Positions 1,051 through 56,905 of a DNA stretch of 64,000 nucleotides are shown in pieces. Under the pieces are notes generated by a model. The model saw only the letters and a list, made by a program, of their open reading frames with translations. It was not told the DNA's origin and searched no databases. How positions within the stretch are numbered: position 1 is the first letter of the stretch; each line of letters opens with the position of its first letter. The position numbers were made by a program, and so were the translations under genes. The stretch lies in assembly GCF_054482595.1 (NCBI RefSeq), contig NZ_CM137008.1; one strand, written 5' to 3'.

Positions 1051-2376
1051 ATGAATAAATATCAGGCAGTGATTATTGGTTTTGGCAAGGCTGGAAAAAC
1101 ATTAGCCGTCACGCTGGCAAAAGCAGGTTGGCGAGTGGCTCTCATCGAACAATCAAATGCAATGTATGGCGGGACCTGTATTAATATCGGCTGCATCCCA
1201 ACCAAAACATTGGTTCATGACGCACAGCAGCACACAGATTTTGTCCGTGCCATACAGCGTAAAAATGAAGTGGTTAATTTTTTACGTAATAAGAATTTTC
1301 ATAATCTTGCAGATATGCCCAATATCGACGTGATCAACGGCCAGGCGGAGTTTATCAATAATCATAGCCTGCGTGTTCATCGGCCTGAGGGAAATCTGGA
1401 GATTCATGGCGAGAAAATTTTTATTAATACTGGTGCACAAACCGTGGTTCCGCCAATTCCTGGAATTACCACCACGCCTGGTGTATATGACAGCACCGGA
1501 TTACTTAATCTAAAAGAATTGCCTGGGCATTTAGGTATTTTGGGCGGCGGATATATTGGCGTTGAGTTCGCCTCTATGTTCGCTAATTTTGGCAGCAAGG
1601 TAACCATTTTAGAAGCAGCTTCGCTGTTTTTGCCTCGGGAAGAACGGGATATTGCTGATAATATCGCGATGATTTTACGCGATCAGGGCGTCGATATTAT
1701 CCTCAATGCCCATGTGGAGCGAATCAGTCACCATGAAAATCAAGTGCAAGTGCATAGCGAGCACGCCCAACTGGCGGTGGATGCACTGTTAATAGCTTCC
1801 GGTCGTCAACCGGCTACCGCTTCGTTACATCCAGAAAATGCCGGTATCGCAGTAAACGAGCGCGGGGCAATTGTCGTTGACAAGCGATTACATACCACCG
1901 CAGACAATATTTGGGCGATGGGAGATGTTACCGGCGGGCTGCAATTTACTTACATATCACTGGATGATTACCGCATTGTACGTGATGAGTTACTGGGTGA
2001 AGGCAAACGTAGTACTGATGATCGGAAAAATGTGCCTTATTCCGTATTTATGACACCGCCCCTGTCCAGGGTTGGTATGACAGAAGAACAAGCCAGAGAG
2101 AGTGGTGCTGATATTCAGGTGGTGACATTGCCTGTAGCTGCAATTCCGCGCGCCAGAGTGATGAACGATACCCGTGGGGTATTAAAAGCGATTGTTGATA
2201 ATAAAACCCAACGTATATTAGGGGCATCACTGCTGTGTGTTGACTCCCACGAGATGATTAATATAGTGAAAATGGTGATGGATGCCGGGCTGCCTTATAG
2301 CATATTACGCGATCAGATATTTACTCATCCGTCGATGAGCGAATCACTCAATGATCTATTTTCATTAGTCAAATAA
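1051..2376 (+). CDS. rclA: Pyridine nucleotide-disulfide oxidoreductase RclA
   Basis: ORF 1024..2376; likely start at internal MNKYQAVIIGFGKAGK (FAD-binding GxGxxG), giving 441 aa; CIPTK redox-active Cys motif. Confidence 0.9.
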   Translation: MNKYQAVIIGFGKAGKTLAVTLAKAGWRVALIEQSNAMYGGTCINIGCIPTKTLVHDAQQHTDFVRAIQRKNEVVNFLRNKNFHNLADMPNIDVINGQAEFINNHSLRVHRPEGNLEIHGEKIFINTGAQTVVPPIPGITTTPGVYDSTGLLNLKELPGHLGILGGGYIGVEFASMFANFGSKVTILEAASLFLPREERDIADNIAMILRDQGVDIILNAHVERISHHENQVQVHSEHAQLAVDALLIASGRQPATASLHPENAGIAVNERGAIVVDKRLHTTADNIWAMGDVTGGLQFTYISLDDYRIVRDELLGEGKRSTDDRKNVPYSVFMTPPLSRVGMTEEQARESGADIQVVTLPVAAIPRARVMNDTRGVLKAIVDNKTQRILGASLLCVDSHEMINIVKMVMDAGLPYSILRDQIFTHPSMSESLNDLFSLVK

Positions 2377-2385
2377 ACTCAAAAT

Positions 2386-2420
2386 CAGACGCCAGAACAA
2401 ATATTCTGGCGTCTCAGAGA
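2386..2420 (+). terminator. Hairpin after rclA (possible attenuator within rclABC)
   Basis: Inverted repeat gacgccag...ctggcgtc directly after the rclA stop; no strong T-run. Confidence 0.35.
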
Positions 2421-2484
2421 AAAGAATCTTATTAATTCCCTGTTACTCTATAACTTCTTAATCACTTCATTGATGGTATTTTAT

Positions 2485-2721
2485 ATGTTTAAAAAATCCG
2501 TTTTATTTGCAACACTATTATCTGGCGTTATGGCATTTTCCACCAATGCAGATGATAAAATAATTCTGAAACATATCAGCGTCTCGTCAGTATCAGCATC
2601 ACCGACAGTTCTGGAGGATGCCATTGCTGATATAGCCAGAAAATATAATGCTTCATCCTGGAAAGTCACATCGATGCGAATTGATAATAATTCAACCGCA
2701 ACAGCAGTATTGTATAAATAA
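2485..2721 (+). CDS. rclB: Small periplasmic DUF1471 (BhsA/YdgH-like) protein RclB
   Basis: ORF 2470..2721; 78-aa product from MFKKSVLFATLLSGVMA signal peptide; position between rclA and rclC. Confidence 0.8.
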   Translation: MFKKSVLFATLLSGVMAFSTNADDKIILKHISVSSVSASPTVLEDAIADIARKYNASSWKVTSMRIDNNSTATAVLYK

Positions 2722-2732
2722 GGATGTTCACA

Positions 2733-3326
2733 ATGGAAAAATACCTGCACCTGTTAAGTCGGGGAGATAAAATTGGCCTGACATTGATTCGTCTGAGTAT
2801 TGCGATTGTTTTTATGTGGATTGGGTTATTAAAGTTTGTCCCTTACGAGGCAGACAGCATTACACCATTCGTCGCAAACAGTCCACTAATGTCGTTCTTT
2901 TATGAACACCCGGAAGACTATAAACAGTATCTGACTCACGAAGGCGAATACAAACCAGAAGCAAGGGCATGGCAATCGGCCAATAATACCTATGGTTTTT
3001 CCAACGGTCTTGGCGTCGTGGAGGTGATTATTGCTCTGCTGGTTTTGGCTAATCCTGTCAATCGCTGGTTAGGTTTATTGGGAGGGCTGATGGCATTTAC
3101 CACACCGTTGGTAACACTCTCATTTTTAATCACCACCCCGGAGGCATGGGTACCCGCATTGGGTGACGCTCATCATGGTTTCCCTTATTTATCCGGTGCT
3201 GGTCGCTTGGTATTGAAAGATACTCTGATGCTGGCAGGTGCTGTCATGATAATGGCAGATTCGGCGCGGGAAATTCTTAAACAACGCAGTAATGAATCCA
3301 GTTCAACGTTAAAAACTGAATATTGA
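2733..3326 (+). CDS. rclC: Inner-membrane DUF417 protein RclC
   Basis: ORF 2724..3326; hydrophobic helices throughout; third gene of rclABC. Confidence 0.8.
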   Translation: MEKYLHLLSRGDKIGLTLIRLSIAIVFMWIGLLKFVPYEADSITPFVANSPLMSFFYEHPEDYKQYLTHEGEYKPEARAWQSANNTYGFSNGLGVVEVIIALLVLANPVNRWLGLLGGLMAFTTPLVTLSFLITTPEAWVPALGDAHHGFPYLSGAGRLVLKDTLMLAGAVMIMADSAREILKQRSNESSSTLKTEY

Positions 3327-43592: not shown

Positions 43593-44051
<459 letters not shown>

Positions 44052-46106: not shown

Positions 46107-47564
46107 GTGTCTGAACTGTCTCAATTATCTCCACAGCCGCTGTGGGATATTTTTGCCAAAATCTGTTCTATTCCTCACCCGTCCTATCATGAAGAGCAAC
46201 TCGCTGAATACATTGTTGGTTGGGCAAAAGAGAAAGGTTTCCATGTCGAACGCGATCAGGTAGGTAATATCCTGATTCGTAAACCTGCTACCGCAGGTAT
46301 GGAAAATCGTAAACCGGTCGTCTTACAGGCCCACCTCGATATGGTGCCGCAGAAAAATAACGACACCGTGCATGACTTCACGAAAGATCCTATCCAGCCT
46401 TATATTGATGGCGAATGGGTTAAAGCGCGCGGCACCACGCTGGGTGCGGATAACGGCATTGGTATGGCGTCTGCGCTGGCGGTTCTGGCTGACGAAAACG
46501 TGGTTCACGGTCCGCTGGAAGTGCTGCTGACCATGACCGAAGAAGCCGGTATGGACGGTGCGTTCGGCTTACAGAGCAACTGGTTGCAGGCTGATATTCT
46601 GATTAACACCGACTCCGAAGAAGAAGGTGAAATCTACATGGGTTGTGCGGGGGGTATCGACTTCACCTCCAACCTGCATTTAGATCGTGAAGCGGTTCCA
46701 GCTGGTTTTGAAACCTTCAAGTTAACCTTAAAAGGTCTGAAAGGCGGTCACTCCGGCGGTGAAATCCACGTTGGCCTGGGTAATGCCAACAAACTGCTGG
46801 TGCGCTTCCTGGCGGGTCATGCAGAAGAACTGGATCTGCGTCTTATTGATTTCAACGGCGGCACACTGCGTAACGCCATCCCGCGTGAAGCCTTTGCGAC
46901 CATTGCTGTCGCAGCTGATAAAGTCGACGCCCTGAAATCTCTGGTGAATACCTATCAGGAGATCCTGAAAAACGAGCTGGCAGAGAAAGAGAAAAATCTG
47001 GCCTTGTTGCTGGACTCTGTAGCGAACGATAAAGCTGCCCTGATTGCGAAATCTCGCGATACCTTTATTCGTCTGCTGAACGCCACCCCGAACGGTGTTA
47101 TCCGCAATTCCGACGTGGCAAAAGGTGTGGTCGAAACCTCCCTGAACGTCGGTGTGGTGACCATGACTGACAATAATGTAGAAATTCACTGCCTGATCCG
47201 TTCTCTGATCGACAGCGGTAAAGACTACGTGGTGAGCATGCTGGATTCGCTGGGTAAACTGGCTGGCGCGAAAACCGAAGCGAAAGGCGCATATCCTGGC
47301 TGGCAGCCGGACGCTAACTCTCCGGTGATGCATCTGGTACGTGAAACCTATCAGCGTCTGTTCAACAAGACGCCGAACATCCAGATTATCCACGCGGGCC
47401 TGGAATGTGGTCTGTTCAAAAAACCGTATCCGGAAATGGACATGGTTTCTATCGGGCCAACAATCACCGGTCCACACTCTCCGGATGAGCAAGTTCACAT
47501 CGAAAGCGTAGGTCATTACTGGACACTGCTGACTGAACTGCTGAAAGAAATTCCAGCGAAGTAA
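46107..47564 (+). CDS. pepD: Cytosol non-specific dipeptidase (aminoacyl-histidine dipeptidase)
   Basis: 485-aa ORF; M20 peptidase. Confidence 0.9.
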   Translation: MSELSQLSPQPLWDIFAKICSIPHPSYHEEQLAEYIVGWAKEKGFHVERDQVGNILIRKPATAGMENRKPVVLQAHLDMVPQKNNDTVHDFTKDPIQPYIDGEWVKARGTTLGADNGIGMASALAVLADENVVHGPLEVLLTMTEEAGMDGAFGLQSNWLQADILINTDSEEEGEIYMGCAGGIDFTSNLHLDREAVPAGFETFKLTLKGLKGGHSGGEIHVGLGNANKLLVRFLAGHAEELDLRLIDFNGGTLRNAIPREAFATIAVAADKVDALKSLVNTYQEILKNELAEKEKNLALLLDSVANDKAALIAKSRDTFIRLLNATPNGVIRNSDVAKGVVETSLNVGVVTMTDNNVEIHCLIRSLIDSGKDYVVSMLDSLGKLAGAKTEAKGAYPGWQPDANSPVMHLVRETYQRLFNKTPNIQIIHAGLECGLFKKPYPEMDMVSIGPTITGPHSPDEQVHIESVGHYWTLLTELLKEIPAK

Positions 47565-47576
47565 TTATTTGATTTG

Positions 47577-47608
47577 CTGCCGGATGGCGTTTAATCGCCT
47601 TCCGGCAG
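47577..47608. terminator. Bidirectional hairpin terminator (pepD / prfH)
   Basis: ctgccggatggcg...cgccttccggcag. Confidence 0.55.
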
Positions 47609-47620
47609 TTTCATCCTTCA

Positions 47621-48356
47621 TTATCCTTCGATAAAAGCCATCCCTGTAAACGTTCGTCGCGGGTTGCCACGTTCAATCTGGTGATGGAACATTCGCCGCT
47701 GCGATTTCAGCACTGCGCTATTTTCCTGTTGCTGTTGCTCCAGCTTCCAGGCAATCAGCAATCGTGCCAGCCGCTTGTTGGCATGCTGGCTGCGCTCTGA
47801 CTGAACCTTCACGCTAATCCAGGTAGCCAGATGCGTGGCGCGCGCCGCCGAATCGGTTTTATTGACATGTTGACCGCCCGGCCCCGACGAACGCAGCGTC
47901 TCATAACGGACCGCGTCGGATTGTTCCTGCTCATCAGCAGTAAAACGCCCAATGCCCAGAAACCAGTTTTTACGCCCATGATGTGGGCGATACGGACTCC
48001 GACAAATCCACTGAATAGTGCCATACCAGCTTTCGCTTAATGCCCATGCGTTGTCGCCATTCAGAGAAACCAGCGCTGAACGCAGGGTGTCAGAGTAACG
48101 ACCTGTTTCTGTTTCCAGCACTGTTACCGCGACGTCTTGTCGGGTAAAAACGACCAACAGAGAAGAACGCTGCGCCAATCGGGTAGCCGCGTCCGGGGTG
48201 TAAATCTGGCATCCCCACTACGCGCTGCATGTTGGGTAAATTTGCCGTGGTGTGTAATTGTTGGATCGCTAAACTCTCGATCCACAGGTCATCAGATGCG
48301 ATGGTAAATACCGCATCGGATAAGGGACGAATATATTTGCCCATGTACCATTCCAT
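47621..48356 (-). pseudogene. prfH: Decayed rtcB-prfH module: RtcB-like N-terminal fragment in one frame fused to a release-factor-H body with a divergent N-terminus
   Basis: 47621..48178 encodes a class-I release-factor fold with GGQ ([15 protein letters not shown]) but an unusual N-terminus; 48090..48356 encodes a short RtcB-like N-terminal stretch ([17 protein letters not shown]) in another frame. Confidence 0.6.
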
Positions 48357-48646
48357 TTATACTCGTCATACTTCAAGTTGCATGTACTGCGACTACGTTC
48401 GTTCACCCCAGTCACTTACTTTAGTAAGCTCCTGGCGATTCACTCGCTTGTCACCTTCCTGCAACTCGAATTATTTAGAGTATATAAATATTAAAAATCA
48501 GGAAATGGCAGACGAATCCAGGGCAAGAAAAAAAGAATTAATCCTGGAAAGGTCTGCAAAGAGTCATTGATAAAGGATTTGTCATGATTTACCTCCTTGC
48601 AGTTTGTGGAATAAGAAAACGCGCACATACCAGGCGGGCGTTATTT

Positions 48647-49114
48647 TCATTGCAAGCTGGATTTAATGTTGCGGTTTATATCGCATAGAAAAATTAGTAA
48701 ACCACGCTCCCCGGCATTCAACGCGCTGCTGCTTAACTGTCTGAAAACCATAACGTTCAAAAAAGGGTTTGCGGTTATGCTTGCGTCCACCGTAAGTTCG
48801 GATTCAGACTTAATCAAAGGTTTTAACAAAGCGCTGGCAACCCCACGGCGGGTGTATTCAGGGTCAACAAATAACATATCGATATAATGTTCAATGCGGG
48901 AAATAAAACCAACCGGTTGTGCATTAATGACTGCAACCCGCACTTGTGATTTCGCGAGTTTCTCCTTCCAGCGAGATTCGTCAATCTGCGCCCAGGCGGC
49001 AATTTGTTGTGGTGAATAATGCTGACTTGCGGTCATCATAACCGCTCTAATGAAAATAGCGCATAGTTGCTGAAAATCGCCAGGCTGATAGTTTCTTATT
49101 TGTATGTTATTCAT
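48647..49114 (-). CDS. yafP: GNAT-family acetyltransferase YafP
   Basis: 155-aa ORF; start overlaps the dinB stop. Confidence 0.8.
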
Positions 49115-50166
49115 AATCCCAGCACCAGTTGTCTTTCCATTTGCGGGTCAAGCAACGTCACATGCAGCCCCACCAGACGCACACCTCGCCCGCCGCGGCG
49201 TTCATCCCAGGTTTTACGCGCGGTGGCGATTAAGTCAGCTTTATTCAGCCTCGGCCAGACGTGCTCCTGGGTGGTTTGCTGAAAATCGTCGAACTTTAAT
49301 TTCACCCCCTGGCGAGCAATCAGTAAATCAGGTTTTACCTTTGCCAGACGGCGTTCAAGTTCCGGATACAGCCGCTCGATAATCGCCTCACATTCAGACC
49401 AGTGATGAATATCTTCCGCCATCGTGCGTTCCACGCCGACGGATTTTCGCAACCGTTCGCTGTTAACATCGCGTTCGTCAATCCCCTGACTACGCTCCCA
49501 CAAAATGCGGCCAAATTTGCCAAAGCGTTTAAGCAGTATCACCAGATCACACTTTTGTACATCACCGCAGGTCCGCAGCCCCATCGCTTCCAGTTTTGCC
49601 GCCGAGACTTTGCCGACGCCGGGGATTTTTGCCAGTGATAAGGTTTGTAAAAATGCCGGAACTTCTGCCGGCGTAATCACAAACTGGCCGTTGGGTTTAT
49701 TCATGTCGGAGGCGATTTTGGCGAGAAACTTTACTGGTGCCACGCCCGCAGATGCCGTCAGTTGCAGCTCGTTGAAAATCGTCTGGCGGATTTCCTGGGC
49801 GATGAGGGTCGCAGAACCGTGGCAATGGACGCTGTCGGTGACATCGAGATAGGCTTCATCCAGTGACAACGGTTCAATGCGCGAGGTGTAGCGCGAGAAG
49901 ATTTCACGGATATGATTTGAGGCTTCTTTGTAGGCGTCAAAGCGCCCCGGAAGCAAGGTGAGATGTGGGCATAATTTGAGCGCCATCCCTGTCGGCATAG
50001 CGCTACGTACGCCAAATTTACGCGCGGGATAATTGGCGGTGCTGATCACCCCTCGACGTTCGCGGCTGCCGCCAATAGCAATAGGGATATCGCGCAGGGC
50101 GGGATTGTCGCGCATCTCCACCGCTGCGAAAAAGCAGTCCATATCCACATGAATGATTTTACGCAT
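49111..50166 (-). CDS. dinB: DNA polymerase IV
   Basis: 351-aa [36 protein letters not shown]... Confidence 0.95.
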
Positions 50167-50182
50167 TGCTCACCTCTCAACA

Positions 50183-50198
50183 CTGGTAAAGTATACAG
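50183..50198. promoter_or_regulatory. LexA (SOS) box upstream of dinB
   Basis: CTGGTAAAGTATACAG (CTG-N10-CAG palindrome) 17-32 bp upstream of the dinB start. Confidence 0.75.
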
Positions 50199-50236
50199 TG
50201 ATTTCAGGGTTTGAGAAATGCGTAAAGATTCAGCAT

Positions 50237-51000
50237 TTAACGCGTTCGCTGCGAAAGCACCTGCTGCTTATCCAGCTTTTGCACCAGTGGCTGCACCACT
50301 TTATCCCCATGCTGACCAAAGTATTGATACAGCGTATCGGACGCACTTTTGGTCAGCACCATAATCTCAATACGCCGATTGCCCGCGCTTTGCGGATTTT
50401 TGGCATCCAGCAGCATCTGGTCCGCCATTGCGCTTACCTGCATCACTTTATCTTCCGGCATTCCGGCCTCTTCCAGCACCCGACGAGCTGAAAGCGCGCG
50501 ATCGCCCGAAAGGTTCCAGTTGTTGTAGATATTGTTTTTGTAGGCCATCGCATCGGTATGCCCGGTAATAATAATTTTGTTATCGAGCGAGTCGAACACT
50601 GGCGCTAGCTCCACCAGCAGCGTTTTAAAGAACGGCATAATCTTCGCGCTGCCGCGTTCGAACATATTGCGATTCTGGTCGTCTTTAATCAGCACGCGTA
50701 ATCCCTGGGGAACAATCTCCATCTCCAGATTCGCTTCCATATGCGCATCACGGGCAATGGTGTTGATACTGGTTGCCAACTCGCCAAGCTCGGTGGCGGA
50801 TTTCTTCTTCAGCAGCGCCGTTTTCTCATTCACATCACGCGCTTTTTTCTCCGTCTCTTCCGGCACCGCCACGGTGGCAGGTTTTGGCGGATGAGACGGG
50901 CTGATTTTATTTAACGGCGACAGCCCACCACCGTTAAAAATCGACTGCCCGTGCAGCGCGGCGATAATGCTTTCACGCTCGGATTTACTGACGCTGTTGA
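50237..51000 (-). pseudogene. lafU: MotB-like Flag-2 motor protein remnant, 5'-truncated
   Basis: C-terminal OmpA-like peptidoglycan-binding domain (ITGHTDAMAY...NRRIEIMVL); the apparent N-terminal 40-50 aa of ORF 50237..51127 is antisense lfhA sequence. Confidence 0.7.
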
Positions 51001-52706
51001 CAATCAACTTTATCGTCGTCACCAAAGGGGCCGAGCGTATTTCCGAGGTTTCTGCCCGCTTTACCCTGGACGCGATGCCCGGCAAACAGATGGCGATTGA
51101 CGCCGACCTTAACGCCGGGTTGATCAACCAGGCGCAGGCGCAAACCCGGCGTAAAGATGTCGCCAGCGAGGCCGATTTCTACGGCGCGATGGACGGGGCA
51201 TCAAAGTTTGTGCGCGGGGACGCCATCGCCGGGATGATGATTCTGGCGATCAACCTGATCGGCGGTGTCTGTATCGGGATCTTCAAATACAACCTGAGCG
51301 CCGATGCTGCCTTCCAGCAATATGTGCTGATGACCATCGGCGACGGGCTGGTGGCGCAGATCCCTTCCCTGCTGCTCTCCACCGCGGCGGCGATTATCGT
51401 CACCCGCGTCAGCGACAACGGCGATATCGCCCATGACGTGCGCCACCAGCTGCTGGCAAGCCCGTCGGTGCTCTACACCGCCACCGGGATTATGTTTGTG
51501 CTGGCGGTGGTGCCGGGAATGCCGCATCTGCCGTTTTTGCTGTTCAGCGCCCTGCTTGGCTTTACCGGCTGGCGGATGAGCAAACGCCCGCAGGCAGCGG
51601 AGGCGGAGGAGAAAAGTCTCGAAACGCTGACCCGCACCATCACCGAAACCAGCGAGCAACAGGTCAGTTGGGAAACGATACCGCTGATCGAGCCTATCAG
51701 TTTAAGCCTCGGCTACAAACTGGTGGCGCTGGTGGACAAAGCCCAGGGCAACCCACTCACCCAGCGGATCCGCGGCGTGCGACAGGTGATATCCGACGGC
51801 AACGGCGTGCTGCTGCCGGAGATCCGCATTCGGGAAAATTTCCGCCTCAAGCCCAGCCAGTACGCCATTTTCATCAACGGTATTAAGGCTGATGAAGCGG
51901 ATATTCCGGCGGATAAACTGATGGCCCTGCCCTCCAGCGAAACCTACGGCGAGATTGACGGCGTGCTGGGGAACGACCCGGCGTACGGGATGCCGGTGAC
52001 CTGGATCCAGCCCGCGCAGAAAGCGAAGGCGCTGAATATGGGGTATCAGGTGATCGACAGCGCCAGCGTGATTGCCACCCATGTGAATAAGATTGTGCGC
52101 AGCTATATTCCTGATTTGTTTAACTATGATGATATTACGCAGTTGCATAATCGTTTGTCGTCGATGGCACCGCGCCTGGCAGAAGACTTAAGCGCGGCGC
52201 TGAATTACAGCCAGTTGCTGAAAGTGTACCGCACACTACTGACCGAAGGCGTTTCCCTGCGCGATATCGTCACCATCGCCACCGTGCTGGTCGCCAGTAG
52301 CGCGGTGACTAAAGATCATATTCTGCTGGCGGCCGATGTACGCCTGGCGCTGCGGCGCAGCATTACCCATCCGTTCGTTCGCAAGCAGGAGCTGACGGTG
52401 TATACGCTGAATAATGAGCTGGAAAATCTGCTCACCAATGTGGTGAATCAGGCGCAACAGGGCGGCAAAGTGATGCTCGACAGCGTGCCGGTTGACCCGA
52501 ATATGCTCAACCAGTTCCAGAGCACGATGCCGCAGGTAAAAGAGCAGATGAAAGCGGCGGGGAAAGACCCGGTGCTGCTGGTGCCGCCGCAGCTTCGCCC
52601 TTTGCTGGCGCGCTATGCGAGATTGTTTGCGCCGGGGCTGCATGTGCTGTCGTATAACGAAGTGCCGGATGAGCTGGAGTTGAAGATTATGGGGGCGTTG
52701 ATGTAG
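50967..52706 (+). pseudogene. lfhA: Flag-2 FlhA-family export-apparatus gene remnant lacking the first ~120 codons
   Basis: ORF begins inside the FlhA transmembrane region (VVTKGAERISEVSARFTLDAMPGKQMAIDADLNAGLI); no upstream coding sequence. Confidence 0.75.
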
Positions 52707-52900
52707 GTATCCGGCATCGGTGCACAACCGCCGGATGCGGCGTGAACGCCTTATCCGGCCTACCGATCCGGCACAGGTTTGTAGGCATGATAAGACGCGC
52801 CAGCGTCGCATCAGGCATCCGCGCACAATTGCCGGATGCGGCACAAGTTTGTAGGCATGATAAGACGCGCTAGCGTCGCATCAGGCATCCGCGCACAATT
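52707..52900. repeat. REP/BIME cluster (several REP palindromes)
   Basis: Repeated gccggatgcggcgtgaacgccttatccggcctac and gtaggcatgataagacgcgccagcgtcgcatcaggc units. Confidence 0.85.
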
Positions 52901-53396
52901 ATGAAATGATACGCTCCCCGGCACTAAAATCCGTTATGTTACCCGCCCAATCAATGGGATATAACCCTCGCGCCACATCGCGATGGAACGTTGAGAATGG
53001 CCAATCACACACCTGCTTTACCCAGCCATGTTTCACTGGATTTATATAAATATAATCAACATGATGCCGATAATCTTTTGTATTACGGATGGCATGCTCC
53101 CAAAAACGTGGTTGCCAGATATTTTTCAATCCACAAGCATGGGTGAATTGCTTTTTAATCTCTCTCCAGCGCGAGGAAAAATCATCATCGCCTTCAGGTA
53201 ATGTCCATATGCAATGCATATGCTCTGGCAAAACGACCCAAGCGTTGATTTCAAAAGGTCTGTCTCGCTTAACGTTAATAATAGCGTTACGGAGCATCTG
53301 GAACTGAGCGGTCAGAAGGTGGCTTCGACGATTTCGTAGGTTAACCGTGAAAAACCAGGTTCCCCCCTTGATGTAATACCGACGATATTCAGACAT
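52899..53396 (-). CDS. rayT: REP-associated tyrosine transposase (RAYT)
   Basis: 165-aa ORF with HuH-type motif (PEHMHCIWTLPEGD) and catalytic Tyr region; flanked by REP clusters on both sides. Confidence 0.8.
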   Translation of the reverse strand: MSEYRRYYIKGGTWFFTVNLRNRRSHLLTAQFQMLRNAIINVKRDRPFEINAWVVLPEHMHCIWTLPEGDDDFSSRWREIKKQFTHACGLKNIWQPRFWEHAIRNTKDYRHHVDYIYINPVKHGWVKQVCDWPFSTFHRDVARGLYPIDWAGNITDFSAGERIIS

Positions 53397-53479
53397 AGCG
53401 ACTCCTTTTTCTCAACGGTAAGAAGAAAAGGAAAGGTTGGCAATGAGGTTGTTTTATATCGGGAAAGCGGCTCGCAAAT

Positions 53480-53575
53480 ATTCGCGGGCTCGTAGGCATG
53501 ATAAGACGCGCCAGCGTCGCATCAGGCACCTGCGTACAACTGCCGGATGCGGCGTAAACGCCTTATCCGTCCTAC
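53480..53575. repeat. REP elements
   Basis: tcgtaggcatgataagacgcgccagcgtcgcatcaggc...gccggatgcggcgtaaacgccttatcc. Confidence 0.85.
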
Positions 53576-54321
53576 AAAATCGTCTCTTCCGTCAAAATCC
53601 GGCGCGCGCCTAAAAAATGATCCTGCCAGAAAGGTTCAGCTAACCGACTTACCCGAATGGTTTCCCCGGTGCGCGGTGACTCAATAAACTGACCGTCGCC
53701 CAGATATACCCCCATATGGTCGGCAATCTCGCGGCTGTGGATATGGAAAAACAGCAAATCTCCCCGGCGCAGGTCGTTATTCGCCACAATCGTTGCCCGA
53801 TGGTAGTGATACATCTCATTAGCCGTACGCTGGAGCTTCGCCTCGAGGATCTTGTTGTAGGCATAAAAAACCAACCCGCTACAGTCAAAGCCTTTATCAG
53901 GCCGCGTGCCGCCCCAGACGTAAGGCTTGCCAAGCTGCTGCTCCAGGCGGTGAATCGCCACTTCGGTAATGTTATGCAGATGGTCGCTGCTTAAAAAGTG
54001 GTTGTTTTCCGCCAGCGCCTGCCAGCGTCTGTCACTCGCCTTGAGCGGCGCAGGAAACCATTCTGGATGCTGTTTTATCTGTTCGCGGTTGTGCTGGCGC
54101 AGCGCCCTTCTGCTTTCGGCATTGCCTTCCACAATATAGCTGGCCTGCTTTTTCAGATGGGTTTGGTACTGTTTTAATAAACGCGCACGGTTTTGCATCC
54201 GCTGGCGGGCGGCGTAGCTGAAAGAGATATGTGATGTGGTGGCGCTGGCAAATGAAGAAAACGGCAAACAAATCAACAGTAATCCCGACAATACAAAGGA
54301 TGGAATCGACGGCAAGGACAT
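53572..54321 (-). CDS. yafL: NlpC/P60-family peptidoglycan endopeptidase lipoprotein YafL
   Basis: ORF 53572..54381; start at MSLPSIPSFVLSGLLLICLPFSSFA; catalytic Cys context GFDCSGLVFYAY and His (HMGVYLGDG). Confidence 0.85.
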   Translation of the reverse strand: MSLPSIPSFVLSGLLLICLPFSSFASATTSHISFSYAARQRMQNRARLLKQYQTHLKKQASYIVEGNAESRRALRQHNREQIKQHPEWFPAPLKASDRRWQALAENNHFLSSDHLHNITEVAIHRLEQQLGKPYVWGGTRPDKGFDCSGLVFYAYNKILEAKLQRTANEMYHYHRATIVANNDLRRGDLLFFHIHSREIADHMGVYLGDGQFIESPRTGETIRVSRLAEPFWQDHFLGARRILTEETIL

Positions 54322-54498
54322 ACTCAATAATGGCTGGTCATGCTTTAATGTTGCAGTGTATCCCGGATCGTTTCTGAACAAACTTAATAAACCATTATTA
54401 TAAAATTAACATATATATTTCAGTGAATTATGTAAATACATCAGTTTATTGAATTGCTCATAAATTGCCGCTGTTGCTCAATTGAGCTACAATTCAAG

Positions 54499-54530: not shown

Positions 54531-54791
54531 ATGGCTGCAAATGCATTTGTTCGCGCCCGAATCGATGAAGATCTGAAGAATCAGGCGGCGGACGTACTGG
54601 CCGGGATGGGGCTGACCATCTCTGACCTGGTTCGCATAACCCTCACAAAGGTCGCGCGTGAAAAGGCATTGCCGTTTGATTTACGCGAGCCTAATCAATT
54701 AACCATTCAATCAATCAAAAACAGCGAAGCTGGCGTTGGTGTTCATAAGGCCAAAGACGCCGATGATTTATTTGATAAATTAGGAATTTAA
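54531..54791 (+). CDS. dinJ: Antitoxin DinJ
   Basis: 86-aa MAANAFVRARIDEDLKNQAADVLAGMGLTISDLVRITL... Confidence 0.9.
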   Translation: MAANAFVRARIDEDLKNQAADVLAGMGLTISDLVRITLTKVAREKALPFDLREPNQLTIQSIKNSEAGVGVHKAKDADDLFDKLGI

Positions 54792-54793
54792 AT

Positions 54794-55072
54794 ATGATTC
54801 AAAGGGATATTGAATACTCGGGACAATTTTCAAAGGATGTAAAACTTGCACAAAAGCGTCATAAGGATATGAATAAATTGAAATATCTTATGACGCTTCT
54901 TATCAATAATACTTTACCGCTTCCAGCTGTTTATAAAGACCACCCGCTGCAAGGTTCATGGAAAGGTTATCGCGATGCTCATGTCGAACCGGACTGGCTC
55001 CTGATTTACAAACTTACCGATAAACTTTTACGATTTGAGAGAACTGGAACTCACGCGGCGCTCTTTGGGTAA
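54794..55072 (+). CDS. yafQ: mRNA interferase toxin YafQ (RelE fold)
   Basis: 92-aa MIQRDIEYSGQFSKDVKLAQKRHKDMNKL...; 2 bp after dinJ. Confidence 0.9.
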   Translation: MIQRDIEYSGQFSKDVKLAQKRHKDMNKLKYLMTLLINNTLPLPAVYKDHPLQGSWKGYRDAHVEPDWLLIYKLTDKLLRFERTGTHAALFG

Positions 55073-56759: not shown

Positions 56760-56905
56760 GAATTTTCAGGTCGGATGCGGCGTGAACGCATTATTCGGCC
56801 TACGGTTCGCGTACAGATTTGTAGGCATGATAAGACGCGTCAGCGTCGCATCAGGCATCGGTGCACAATTGCCGGATGCGGCGTAAACGTCTTATCCGGC
56901 CTACG
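56760..56905. repeat. REP/BIME cluster
   Basis: tcggatgcggcgtgaacgc...gtaggcatgataagacgcgtcagcgtcgcatcaggc...gccggatgcggcgtaaacgtcttatccggcctacgcc. Confidence 0.85.

Follow-up and report, generated by a model that had tools for sequence, protein, structure and literature searches.

The Flag-2 lateral flagellar deletion scar between dinB and rayT in Escherichia coli: anatomy, junction and distribution

Results

Anatomy of the locus

The DNA analysed, hereafter the window, is a 64-kb stretch of an E. coli chromosome. Between dinB and rayT it carries two gene remnants, lafU' and lfhA', adjacent and divergent with nothing between them; both abut at an ATC that they have in common (Table 1). A preliminary description took this truncated pair for the footprint of a deletion of the Flag-2 lateral flagellar cluster, to be checked by alignment with an intact locus. 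As intact reference we used E. coli R7 (L001), which belongs to ST131, and the annotation was that in RefSeq of the identical strain GF66.1 (window = L002 + 44099). The alignment bears out the footprint. It places the endpoints at 51003-51005, which corrects the meeting point first put at 50970-51000. Between the two breakpoints the intact R7 holds 38,135 nt and 43 complete flagellar genes, all gone here; the other parts of this block have no match in the window except short REP-like repeats, and an intact N-terminal coding sequence, sought for either gene across the 64 kb, was not found. The flanks are collinear with the intact locus—pepD, yafP and dinB on one side, rayT and yafL on the other. 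The position from dinB to rayT/yafL is the site of intact Flag-2, collinear in GF66.1, R7, 23CRST029, Z135-3 and CE0032f. The region 50237-52706 is a Flag-2 deletion scar: the remnants themselves are confirmed, and the comparison with R7 supports their origin by deletion. They do meet, as first described, but not tail-to-head: both genes read outward in the intact locus, and it is their truncated 5' ends that are joined, head-to-head.

Table 1. Features of the scar and of its surroundings, with positions in the window
Feature	Position	Strand	Description	Basis
dinB	49111..50166	-	conserved neighbour on the lafU side, anchors the locus	GF66.1 and R7 annotation
lafU'	50237..51004	-	codons 53-307 and stop of the MotB-like lateral stator LafU	tblastn, Pfam
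lfhA' frame extension	50967..51002	+	chance 12 codons (MLSRSDLLTLLT), antisense of lafU'	ORF list
inverted-repeat surviving arm TGACGCTGT	50989..50997		9-bp stem, 9-nt loop, spans the intact lafU breakpoint; partner arm deleted	inverted-repeat scan of the intact locus
imperfect direct homology	50994..51005		CTGTTGACAATC vs CTGATGATCATC, 9/12 match	BLAST overlap and base-by-base comparison
deletion junction	51003..51005		ATC at both ancestral breakpoints, 3-bp microhomology	alignment of window, intact lafU and intact lfhA
lfhA'	51003..52706	+	codons 131-697 and stop of the FlhA-type export-gate protein	Pfam FHIPEP, three-way alignment
lafU' frame extension	51005..51022	-	6 codons, antisense of lfhA', to GTG	GF66.1 RefSeq annotation
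REP/BIME repeat cluster	52709..52900		between the lfhA' stop and rayT	repeat families D1, D2
rayT	52899-53396	-	other side of the scar	annotation

Residues 53-307 of R7 LafU map by tblastn to 51004-50240 with 100% identity, the intact gene lying at 4785-5708 of L001; the loss of the N-terminus, already seen in the preliminary description, amounts to 52 codons in this alignment. Full-length LafU proteins display MotB_plug (PF13677) and OmpA (PF00691), truncated ones PF00691 only, and lafU' has the OmpA match alone (residues 155-248). It keeps the OmpA-like peptidoglycan-binding domain and has lost the cytoplasmic N-terminus, the transmembrane helix and Trp52; the N-terminal transmembrane helix and plug which precede the OmpA-like domain in a functional MotB/LafU stator are missing. 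PGAP sets the start at the GTG at 51022, giving a 261-aa "LafU" CDS that is called intact. The six-codon extension so included is not conserved in Atlantibacter, and the mechanical minus-strand ORF runs up to a TTG at 51127.

In lfhA' the FHIPEP match begins at profile position 99 of 657, so that the N-terminus is missing here too. tblastn maps R7 LfhA residues 125-697 to 50985-52703, where the first six aligned residues are a chance similarity in the antisense-lafU extension. Intact lfhA occupies 43299-45392 of L001, with the retained part starting at 43689; the loss is of 130 codons, against the approximate 120 of the preliminary description. Along with these 130 codons the deletion took the start codon and, upstream of it, the lfiMNPQR-lfhB operon. 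The remnant is without about the first four transmembrane helices and keeps the FHIPEP loop, the later transmembrane helices and the cytoplasmic domain; its frame is open throughout, with no internal stop. The full membrane domain, own start and operon promoter expected of a functional FlhA/FHIPEP gene are lacking. The ATG at 50967 that opens the lfhA' extension has no Shine-Dalgarno motif and recurs only in E. albertii and A. subterranea, being absent in the other six non-E. coli loci examined. The overlapping antisense frames pointed out earlier do exist as mechanical ORFs; they are chance extensions over the junction and not ancestral coding sequence.

The junction

In the three-way alignment the window matches lafU through 51005 and lfhA from 51003. 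The codon for Ile53 of lafU, which reads AAT on the plus strand (51002-51004), overlaps the one for Ile131 of lfhA (ATC, 51003-51005) by 2 nt. ATC is present at both parental sites and once in the scar, with no longer repeat, as expected of a deletion at a microhomology. By contrast an att-like site-specific recombination finds little to rely on: only AT/ATC is common to the loci and the flanking bases vary between taxa. No recombinase is found among the annotated Flag-2 genes of R7 or 23CRST029. Two other candidates were dropped, a GATC/Dam site at the lfhA breakpoint because the lafU side of E. coli has no GATC, and the neighbouring RayT as excision enzyme because rayT adjoins the locus only in Escherichia.

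Both breakpoints fall in palindromic sequence. Inverted repeats of the kind that spans the intact lafU breakpoint cover 0.7% of Flag-2 positions in the scan of the intact locus, and palindromes such as ATGATCAT, at the lfhA breakpoint, 1.0%, values obtained with parameters picked after the palindromes had been seen. That each is individually rare hints at a structure-guided and possibly repeatable mechanism. ATGATCAT is conserved in 4/4 taxa examined; E. coli and A. subterranea have the lafU inverted repeat, C. amalonaticus has it in a weakened form, and in the intact allele of K. ascorbata it is broken. As the parameters are post hoc and the lafU repeat is not conserved in K. ascorbata, we retain a hairpin or palindrome driving the deletion, although statistically unusual, as a lead only.

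Distribution in E. coli and in other genera

A 151-nt junction probe matched 4085 of 5426 complete E. coli genomes; 1323 and 1291 of the 5426 have the uninterrupted breakpoint sequence of lafU and of lfhA, respectively. The intact locus is present in 24% of E. coli here, close to the shares published for E. albertii (about 25%) and Escherichia (24%) in PMC6993521 and PMC11420993. Twelve scar alleles out of twelve, from diverse complete genomes, have the identical junction and the length of 2470 nt, and the E. coli genomes sharing this junction span 94.5-100% identity.

At the codon level the junction is identical in E. albertii, Citrobacter, Kluyvera, three Atlantibacter, a Cedecea-like group and Ewingella, taxa which apparently span two families, Enterobacteriaceae and Yersiniaceae. 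In these non-E. coli scars the flanks are native to each taxon to within 2-3 nt of the junction, and the codons before the lfhA part differ between taxa (GACAAT, GACGAT, CATAAT, TAGAAT). A recent cross-genus import of the E. coli scar is rejected on this account, wobble positions 2-6 nt from the junction differing per taxon. In K. ascorbata the scar occurs on many contigs. The pair is reportedly missing where Flag-2 is wholly lacking, e.g. in Salmonella and Klebsiella. PMC6993521 places Flag-2 remnants mainly in taxa that also hold intact loci, and its table 1 has the pair absent from taxa without any Flag-2, Salmonella and Klebsiella among them. A table of De Maayer et al. gives Atlantibacter 0/5 with Flag-2; A. 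subterranea does hold an intact LfhA of 696 aa.

Scar and intact alleles

Scar and intact alleles are intermixed within species. No fixed difference separates them, and 158 of the 254 polymorphisms of lfhA' are shared with as few as six intact alleles. All four combinations of left and right haplotypes are present within about 130 nt across the junction. The scar strain CE0032f matches 23CRST029, which is intact, on one side alone, the right flank, as far as the junction itself. Near-identity of scar and intact alleles is also found in A. subterranea (1.1% nt) and Ewingella (1.9-2.6%), and at the lafU side in Kluyvera and Atlantibacter.

The closest pair belongs to ST131: the scar strain Z135-3 and the Flag-2+ strain R7 align with 0 mismatches along their flanks, for 5.5 kb and 3.8 kb, up to the breakpoints. 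This pair could be read as proof of a recurrent, de novo deletion. We rejected that reading because both strains belong to ST131, for which an insertion, hence a gain, of Flag-2 is described (Ben Zakour et al. 2016, summarised by PMC5369007).

Reading frames, selection and expression

Among 12 E. coli scar alleles dN/dS is 0.030 for lfhA' and 0.041 for lafU', the same as among intact alleles; it is 0.019-0.034 among the three Atlantibacter scars (dS 0.34-0.81) and 0-0.01 among Ewingella scars. lfhA' is open over all its 567-568 codons in 8/9 non-E. coli loci, and of these eight, six have a lafU' that reads through to the natural stop, while in the other two it stays open as far as the contig extends. 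Nonsense mutations are absent from 35 E. coli scar alleles (0/35). On the other hand lfhA' has frameshifts in four of the 35 (11%) and in-frame deletions in two, the type strain of E. albertii has both remnants disrupted, and many shortened forms of the scar occur in E. coli and A. hermannii. Scar-only singletons have N:S ratios of 13:64 and 12:42, where about 2.4-3.4 would be expected under neutrality; they are not decisive as a test of recent neutral evolution, since singletons among 35 alleles of a population about 5% diverse are mostly old variants. Atlantibacter would have offered a clean test of selection as a scar-only genus, which is undermined by the intact LfhA of A. subterranea; A. 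hermannii, apparently scar-only, is too uniform to inform on selection.

Over the ten loci surveyed across taxa neither remnant has a conserved start codon or Shine-Dalgarno motif, which rules out conserved chimeric starts for the two junction-crossing ORFs. The promoter scan gave only weak 9/12 matches, and the pair has reportedly been described as promoterless. Under laboratory conditions, expression of lafU is reported to be undetectable (PMC8824477).

Discussion

Origin and persistence of the scar

We consider it probable, with real room for doubt, that the scar is one ancient microhomology deletion allele which swaps with the intact cluster by homologous recombination, and that the remnants have no function of their own. 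An illegitimate recombination in an ancestor would have joined the lafU site (Trp52/Ile53) to the lfhA site (Ile130/Ile131) by 2-3 common bases (AT/ATC). About 38 kb would have been lost in this way, the 43 lateral-flagellar genes and, from the two outermost genes, which face outward, the 5' ends with their promoters and start codons, leaving two head-to-head, promoterless, N-terminally truncated fragments unable to form an export gate or a stator. Such a deletion probably occurred once, long ago: with conservation at the join limited to 2-3 nt, independent hits on the same nucleotides on both sides are very unlikely without a dedicated mechanism. The scar would then endure as an alternative allele of Flag-2, traded with the intact cluster, the remnants serving as homology arms; crossovers in the perfectly conserved stretch beside the junction would let the flanks stay native. 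Allele exchange at Flag-2 is documented in ST131, whose scar-bearing and Flag-2+ members differ by the whole cluster, which indicates that the two states interconvert by recombination (PMC5369007). The remnants, probably unexpressed, would be repeatedly re-exposed to selection, and we infer that they owe their undecayed state to repeated conversion from intact genes under selection, or to being taken back into such genes, and not to a function of their own.

Some difficulties weigh on this scheme. A rough calculation with published genome-wide recombination parameters of E. coli predicts more decay than there is: zero nonsense mutations in 35 alleles and a dN/dS like that of intact genes would need an exchange about 7-15 times the genome average. 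One deletion allele standing beside the intact allele in several genera, and apparently in two families, demands a very long-lived polymorphism or repeated transfer across taxa, with flanks that are native in each taxon to within 2-3 nt of the join. The rare palindromic sequence at both breakpoints speaks against it as well.

Alternatively, the junction may be remade independently between and within species, each scar being young and derived from the local intact allele by cleavage and joining directed by hairpins or palindromes, or by a putative site-specific recombinase. Native flanks up to the junction in every taxon, scar alleles often identical to the local intact allele, and remnants that look fresh—undisrupted in 8/9 non-E. 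coli loci as far as the contigs reach, lafU' running off the contig end in two—all fit this proposal; so do the presence of scars mainly where intact loci occur (PMC6993521) and the position of both breakpoints in palindromes, each kind making up about 1% of the locus, with ATGATCAT conserved in all four taxa examined. However, the 2-3 nt common at the join stand between widely varying codons, with no conserved recombinase core visible; the conserved annotated Flag-2 genes include no recombinase, and rayT is a neighbour in Escherichia only. Besides, K. ascorbata carries the scar in spite of the broken inverted repeat of its intact lafU, and whole scar-bearing phylogroups would demand very many independent events. 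The best isogenic pair, that of ST131, is described in PMC5369007 as a gain of Flag-2 and not a loss. We regard recurrent site-directed deletion as unlikely. For a private and recent deletion in this strain, or in K-12-like strains, with no wider history, nothing speaks except that a single genome has just one junction to show; the same junction in 4085 of 5426 E. coli genomes and in other genera refutes it, and we give it practically no credit.

It is just as improbable as recurrent deletion, to our mind, that truncated LfhA and/or LafU are expressed at a low level or conditionally, purifying selection then conserving the junction across genera. The low dN/dS in E. coli, Atlantibacter and Ewingella scars, the mostly synonymous scar-only singletons, the open frames outside E. 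coli with the absence of nonsense mutations inside it, and the annotation of lafU' as an intact CDS by PGAP would all be accounted for. Yet no start codon or Shine-Dalgarno motif is conserved over all the surveyed taxa, the pair is reportedly promoterless, and the parts lost, transmembrane helices 1-4 of FlhA and the transmembrane helix and plug of MotB, are essential to the known roles of these proteins. The frameshifts of lfhA' in E. coli, the double disruption in the E. albertii type strain and the many shortened forms point in the same direction, and the Atlantibacter values lose weight with the intact lfhA of A. subterranea. Moreover lafU expression reportedly went undetected (PMC8824477), and the absence of the pair from taxa without Flag-2 (table 1 of PMC6993521) is unexpected of an independently useful pair.

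Significance

Beyond the ancient, exchanged allele that we favour, one may tentatively go further and see in this very old alternative allele an on/off switch at the level of the population, whose arms are kept intact by direct or second-order selection; equally new, and included in the same tentative proposal, would be a site-directed deletion at two palindromes. Under such a switch a 38-kb flagellar system could be cleanly lost and regained and, if second-order selection operates, only lineages with undamaged arms would regain a working system. If the exchange holds true, the locus offers a natural example of a large cluster that comes and goes through homologous recombination at fixed arms, and a "pseudogene" can have a low dN/dS and an open frame without the fragment being functional. 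This would bear on long-lived presence/absence polymorphisms of flagella, secretion systems and capsules. A plainer point concerns annotation: the two "genes" are the ends of a lost lateral-flagella cluster, and pipelines still call lafU intact.

Comparison with known systems

The scar itself is already published, as the fhiA-mbhA or Flag-2 remnant. The remnant of K-12 (Ren, Beatson, Parkhill and Pallen 2005, via PMC3032704 and PMC6993521) has the same fragments, divergent order, dinB-rayT/yafL site and junction, and the lfhA/lafU (fhiA/mbhA) pair is given as the Flag-2 leftover in K-12, B, EDL933 and Flag-2-negative E. albertii (PMC3032704, PMC6993521, PMC11420993 and PMC5369007). In Flag-2-negative E. 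albertii and Enterobacterales, a region of about 2.5 kb with truncated flhA/lfhA and lafU replaces the cluster (PMC6993521, PMC11420993). Flag-2-negative ST131 retains lfhA over about 1700 bp and lafU over 769 bp (PMC5369007); we count here 1704 nt of lfhA' and 769 nt of lafU'. The codon-identical junction across genera, the open frames and the dN/dS go beyond the published accounts so far as these could be consulted, no report of them being found in the available text of De Maayer 2020 and Carter 2024 (PMC6993521, PMC11420993).

In ST131 the scar is present in SE15, S250 and Z135-3, and Flag-2 in subclades B2-B5 and clade C (PMC5369007), with R7 as the Flag-2+ member used here. The exchange in ST131 left no detectable donor sequence outside the cluster, the 5.5 kb and 3.8 kb of flank being identical. 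K-12 MG1655 (L003) is 96.4% identical to this strain over the region, with the identical junction and length of 2470 nt; the difference is allelic only, a nucleotide divergence of 3.6% that is mostly synonymous. Beside dinB, K-12 has yafN-yafO, which this strain is without at that place. ETT2, a degenerate second type III secretion cluster, resembles Flag-2 in being intact in some E. coli and reduced to deletion remnants in others, K-12 included. At the opposite, ETT2 has undergone several different deletions and widespread point inactivation, whereas the loss of Flag-2 goes through essentially one junction.

Anatomy of the scar

The identification of 50237-52706 as the remainder of a deleted Flag-2 lateral flagellar cluster is close to certain. 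Over 50100-52800 the window matches E. coli GF66.1 at 100% identity and K-12 MG1655 at 96.4%; the RefSeq gene order of GF66.1 (locus L002; window coordinate = L002 + 44099) reads pepD, prfH' (pseudo), rtcB-family' (pseudo), yafP, dinB, lafU, flhA (pseudo, "missing N-terminus"), rayT, yafL, dinJ, yafQ, dpaA. An OmpA-family domain is the sole domain in the minus-strand ORF ending at 50237, and the FHIPEP match of the plus-strand ORF ending at 52706 begins at profile position 99 of 657, so that its N-terminal part is absent. As intact reference we took the Flag-2 locus of E. coli R7 (L001), which has the same orientation as the window and 43 annotated genes between lafU and lfhA. BLAST returned two collinear pieces overlapping by 12 nt; base by base, the window matches lafU through 51005 and lfhA from 51003, the shared ATC lying within a 9/12 imperfect repeat. 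Compared with R7, 38,135 nt are missing, including 155 nt of lafU and 390 nt of lfhA. Neither this block (only short REP-like repeats match) nor N-terminal coding sequence of either gene was found elsewhere in the window.

The preliminary description thus recognised rightly two N-terminally truncated genes and a large deletion that removed Flag-2, and its proposed alignment with an intact locus does place the endpoints. Its details need amending: lfhA lost 130 codons instead of about 120, and the junction lies at 51003-51005, not 50970-51000. The genes do not meet tail-to-head either: since both point away from the cluster, the contact is between the truncated 5' ends, head-to-head and divergent. 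The overlapping antisense frames exist as ORFs, but are mechanical extensions across the junction (plus-strand ATG at 50967, PGAP GTG at 51022). RefSeq/PGAP nevertheless calls the lafU remnant an intact 261-aa "putative lateral flagellar export/assembly protein LafU", with a start within lfhA' antisense, and flags the lfhA remnant as a pseudogene; the database cluster of this LafU form has >6,000 member sequences.

Features of the scar, its intact counterpart and its neighbourhood
Feature	Sequence	Position	Strand	Extent or remark
Intact lafU (R7 annotation)	L001	4785-5708	minus	307 codons
Intact lfhA (annotated flhA; R7 annotation)	L001	43299-45392	plus	697 codons
lafU'	window	50237-51005	minus	769 nt kept, residues 53-307
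lfhA'	window	51003-52706	plus	1704 nt kept, residues 131-697 plus stop
PGAP "lafU"	window	50237-51022	minus	261 aa
High-diversity segment, pepD to yafL	window	46107-54381
Second scar, prfH'/rtcB-family'	window	47621-48356		junction about 48138-48146
R7 segment missing at second scar	L001	about 1796-2813		about 1.0 kb
dinB/yafP overlap	window	49111-49114		4 nt
REP/BIME-type clusters	window	52709-52900, 53476-53579, 56772-56905
rayT	window	52899-53396
dinJ-yafQ	window	54531-55072		toxin-antitoxin pair
Serine recombinase gene	L065	2680-3999		Resolvase, Recombinase, Zn_ribbon_recom

Neighbourhood

A second deletion scar lies nearby, where prfH has lost its N-terminus and its rtcB-family neighbour the C-terminus (both PGAP pseudogenes); the two alignments to R7 have 9 nt in common at the join, and both genes are intact in R7 and Z135-3. 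REP/BIME-type clusters are found on both sides of rayT, and similar REP-like units in several intergenic spaces of R7's intact cluster. The yafN-yafO pair, which lies between dinB and yafP in K-12, is absent there in the window, R7, Z135-3, CE0032f and 23CRST029. The dinJ-yafQ pair, present in the window and 23CRST029 and absent between yafL and dpaA in R7, Z135-3 and CE0032f, is another presence/absence polymorphism of this neighbourhood. From pepD to yafL the region is unusually diverse in E. coli (3-5% mean pairwise nucleotide difference for pepD, yafP, dinB, rayT and yafL; 0.6-2% for dinJ-yafQ, dpaA and yafJ). The junction probe described below also matches 17 places in E. coli plasmid records, presumably F-prime plasmids with the proAB-lac-dinB part of the chromosome on them; if so, the scar would be conjugally mobile in laboratory strains.

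Scar and intact alleles within E. coli

A 151-nt junction probe matched full length in 4085 of 5426 complete E. coli genomes, and the intact-breakpoint probes in 1323 (lafU side) and 1291 (lfhA side), i.e. about 75% scar and about 24% intact. Twelve scar alleles picked across the 94.5-100% identity range all carry the identical junction string and a stop-to-stop length of exactly 2470 nt, with no stop codon or frameshift. Among them dN/dS is 0.030 for lfhA' (dS 0.21) and 0.041 for lafU' (dS 0.13), and 0.025 and 0.050 respectively over the same codons of intact alleles. No difference is fixed between the two classes; 158 of 254 lfhA' polymorphisms recur in a set of only six intact alleles. Diversity stays undiminished towards the junction: the nearest variable site, 11 nt off, is polymorphic in both classes. 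Some scar alleles even equal particular intact alleles, or nearly so, over kilobases: Z135-3 (scar) and R7 (intact) show 0 mismatches in 5553 nt of one flank and 3813 nt of the other, and CE0032f (scar) differs from 23CRST029 (intact) at 2 positions within 3.1 kb on the lfhA side, with 2.5% divergence on the lafU side from 343 nt off the junction onward. Z135-3 might pass for a fresh deletion of R7, a reading we rejected: both belong to ST131, for which PMC5369007 describes a Flag-2 insertion.

Adding 23 further usable alleles from metagenomes and other contigs revealed lfhA' frameshifting deletions in four (1, 1, 5 and 5 nt) and in-frame deletions in two (3 and 12 nt), with no nonsense mutation and no lafU' lesion; the protein database holds many shortened E. 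coli forms. Lesions thus arise and are tolerated, yet far fewer are seen than a sequence neutral ever since the diversification of E. coli would be expected to carry.

The same junction outside E. coli

When one genome per species was scanned with a degenerate, codon-aware pattern of the junction, the join turned up in E. albertii, Citrobacter sp. MGH106, Kluyvera ascorbata and three Atlantibacter species, at the same codons despite genus-level flank divergence. Truncated LfhA ORFs, in which antisense-lafU residues precede I-N-F-[IV]-V-V-T-K-G, were seen down to 69% identity, and contigs or cluster members assign them to a Cedecea-like group ("Enterobacter sp. Ap-916") and to Ewingella americana, a member of the Yersiniaceae. 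In all these scars LafU' begins at the Ile after Trp52 and LfhA' at Ile131, with an overlap of the same two bases between the two Ile codons. The lfhA' frame runs uninterrupted through all its 567-568 codons except in the E. albertii type strain, which alone has both remnants broken; that of lafU' reaches its natural stop in 6 of 8 loci and stays open up to the end of the contig in the remaining two. The dN/dS is 0.019-0.034 for the three Atlantibacter scars (dS 0.34-0.81) and 0-0.01 for those of Ewingella.

Intact alleles, too, occur in every one of these taxa and are close to the local scar alleles: the nucleotide difference is 1.1% in A. subterranea, 1.9-2.6% in Ewingella, and 8.0% for the Cedecea-like pair, which however joins different species. 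In K. ascorbata and A. subterranea the 36 nt beside the junction on the lafU side are the same in scar and intact alleles, taxon-specific wobble bases included.

Full-length LfhA of Siccibacter turicensis (P0075-P0077) is 96% identical to an Atlantibacter lfhA' (L030), closer than expected between genera, which suggests a horizontal exchange of Flag-2 between the two. Contigs of Collinsella- and Clostridiales-labelled MAGs (L028, L032) bear an E. coli-type scar at about 95-96% identity, almost certainly E. coli binning contamination of these Gram-positive gut taxa. In a Citrobacter amalonaticus-type contig (L065) a large serine recombinase gene lies directly downstream of intact lafU, at the place of dinB in other genomes; it probably belongs to an island or prophage integrated beside the locus.

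Origin and maintenance of the scar

With no more than 2-3 bases shared at the join and different codons around it from taxon to taxon, identical independent deletions by chance are not credible, which leaves a single origin or a directed mechanism. A mechanism deleting at these two points would fit the native flanks seen in every taxon, and the breakpoints fall in a 9-bp-stem inverted repeat (lafU; such features cover 0.7% of locus positions) and a perfect 10-bp palindrome (lfhA; 1.0%). However, the join has no conserved core, the R7 and 23CRST029 annotations show no recombinase in the cluster, rayT adjoins the locus in Escherichia only, and in K. ascorbata an intact allele has a disrupted lafU inverted repeat. 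We rather lean towards one old microhomology deletion allele that would coexist with the intact cluster, scar and intact alleles being exchanged by homologous recombination with crossovers in the strongly conserved sequence next to the junction; in this way the remnants would time and again pass through, or be converted from, intact genes on which selection acts. A rough two-class estimate with genome-wide recombination parameters falls within a factor of ten of what is observed and still predicts more remnant decay than seen; this excess, and the demanding long persistence across genera, keep our preference for the single old allele a measured one. The reverse reaction is documented in ST131, where Flag-2, described as inserted into a scar-bearing ancestor (PMC5369007), was regained by recombination in the remnants with no donor sequence left in the flanks.

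The low dN/dS and open frames could also mean that the remnants are themselves functional. Against this, they have no conserved start codon or Shine-Dalgarno motif and only weak promoter-like matches, and they lack segments on which the known roles depend (FlhA transmembrane helices 1-4; the MotB transmembrane helix and plug); frameshifted alleles amount to 11%, and the pair is absent where taxa have no Flag-2. Moreover lafU is reportedly not detectably expressed, according to a remark in PMC8824477.

Comparison with published remnants

In the portions of the Flag-2 remnant literature at hand we met no statement of the cross-genus junction identity or of the undecayed remnants, a side observation that may merit a dedicated study. 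The scar itself is a known feature, correctly called and ordinary as annotation. The lfhA/lafU pair is the published vestige of Flag-2 in K-12 and B (PMC3032704) and is known from EDL933, MG1655 and Flag-2-negative E. albertii (PMC11420993), and direct repeats at the deletion ends have been read as a sign of recombination (PMC6993521). A Flag-2-negative ST131 strain is reported to keep about 1700 bp (lfhA) and 769 bp (lafU) of the two genes (PMC5369007), with which the remnant lengths found here agree.
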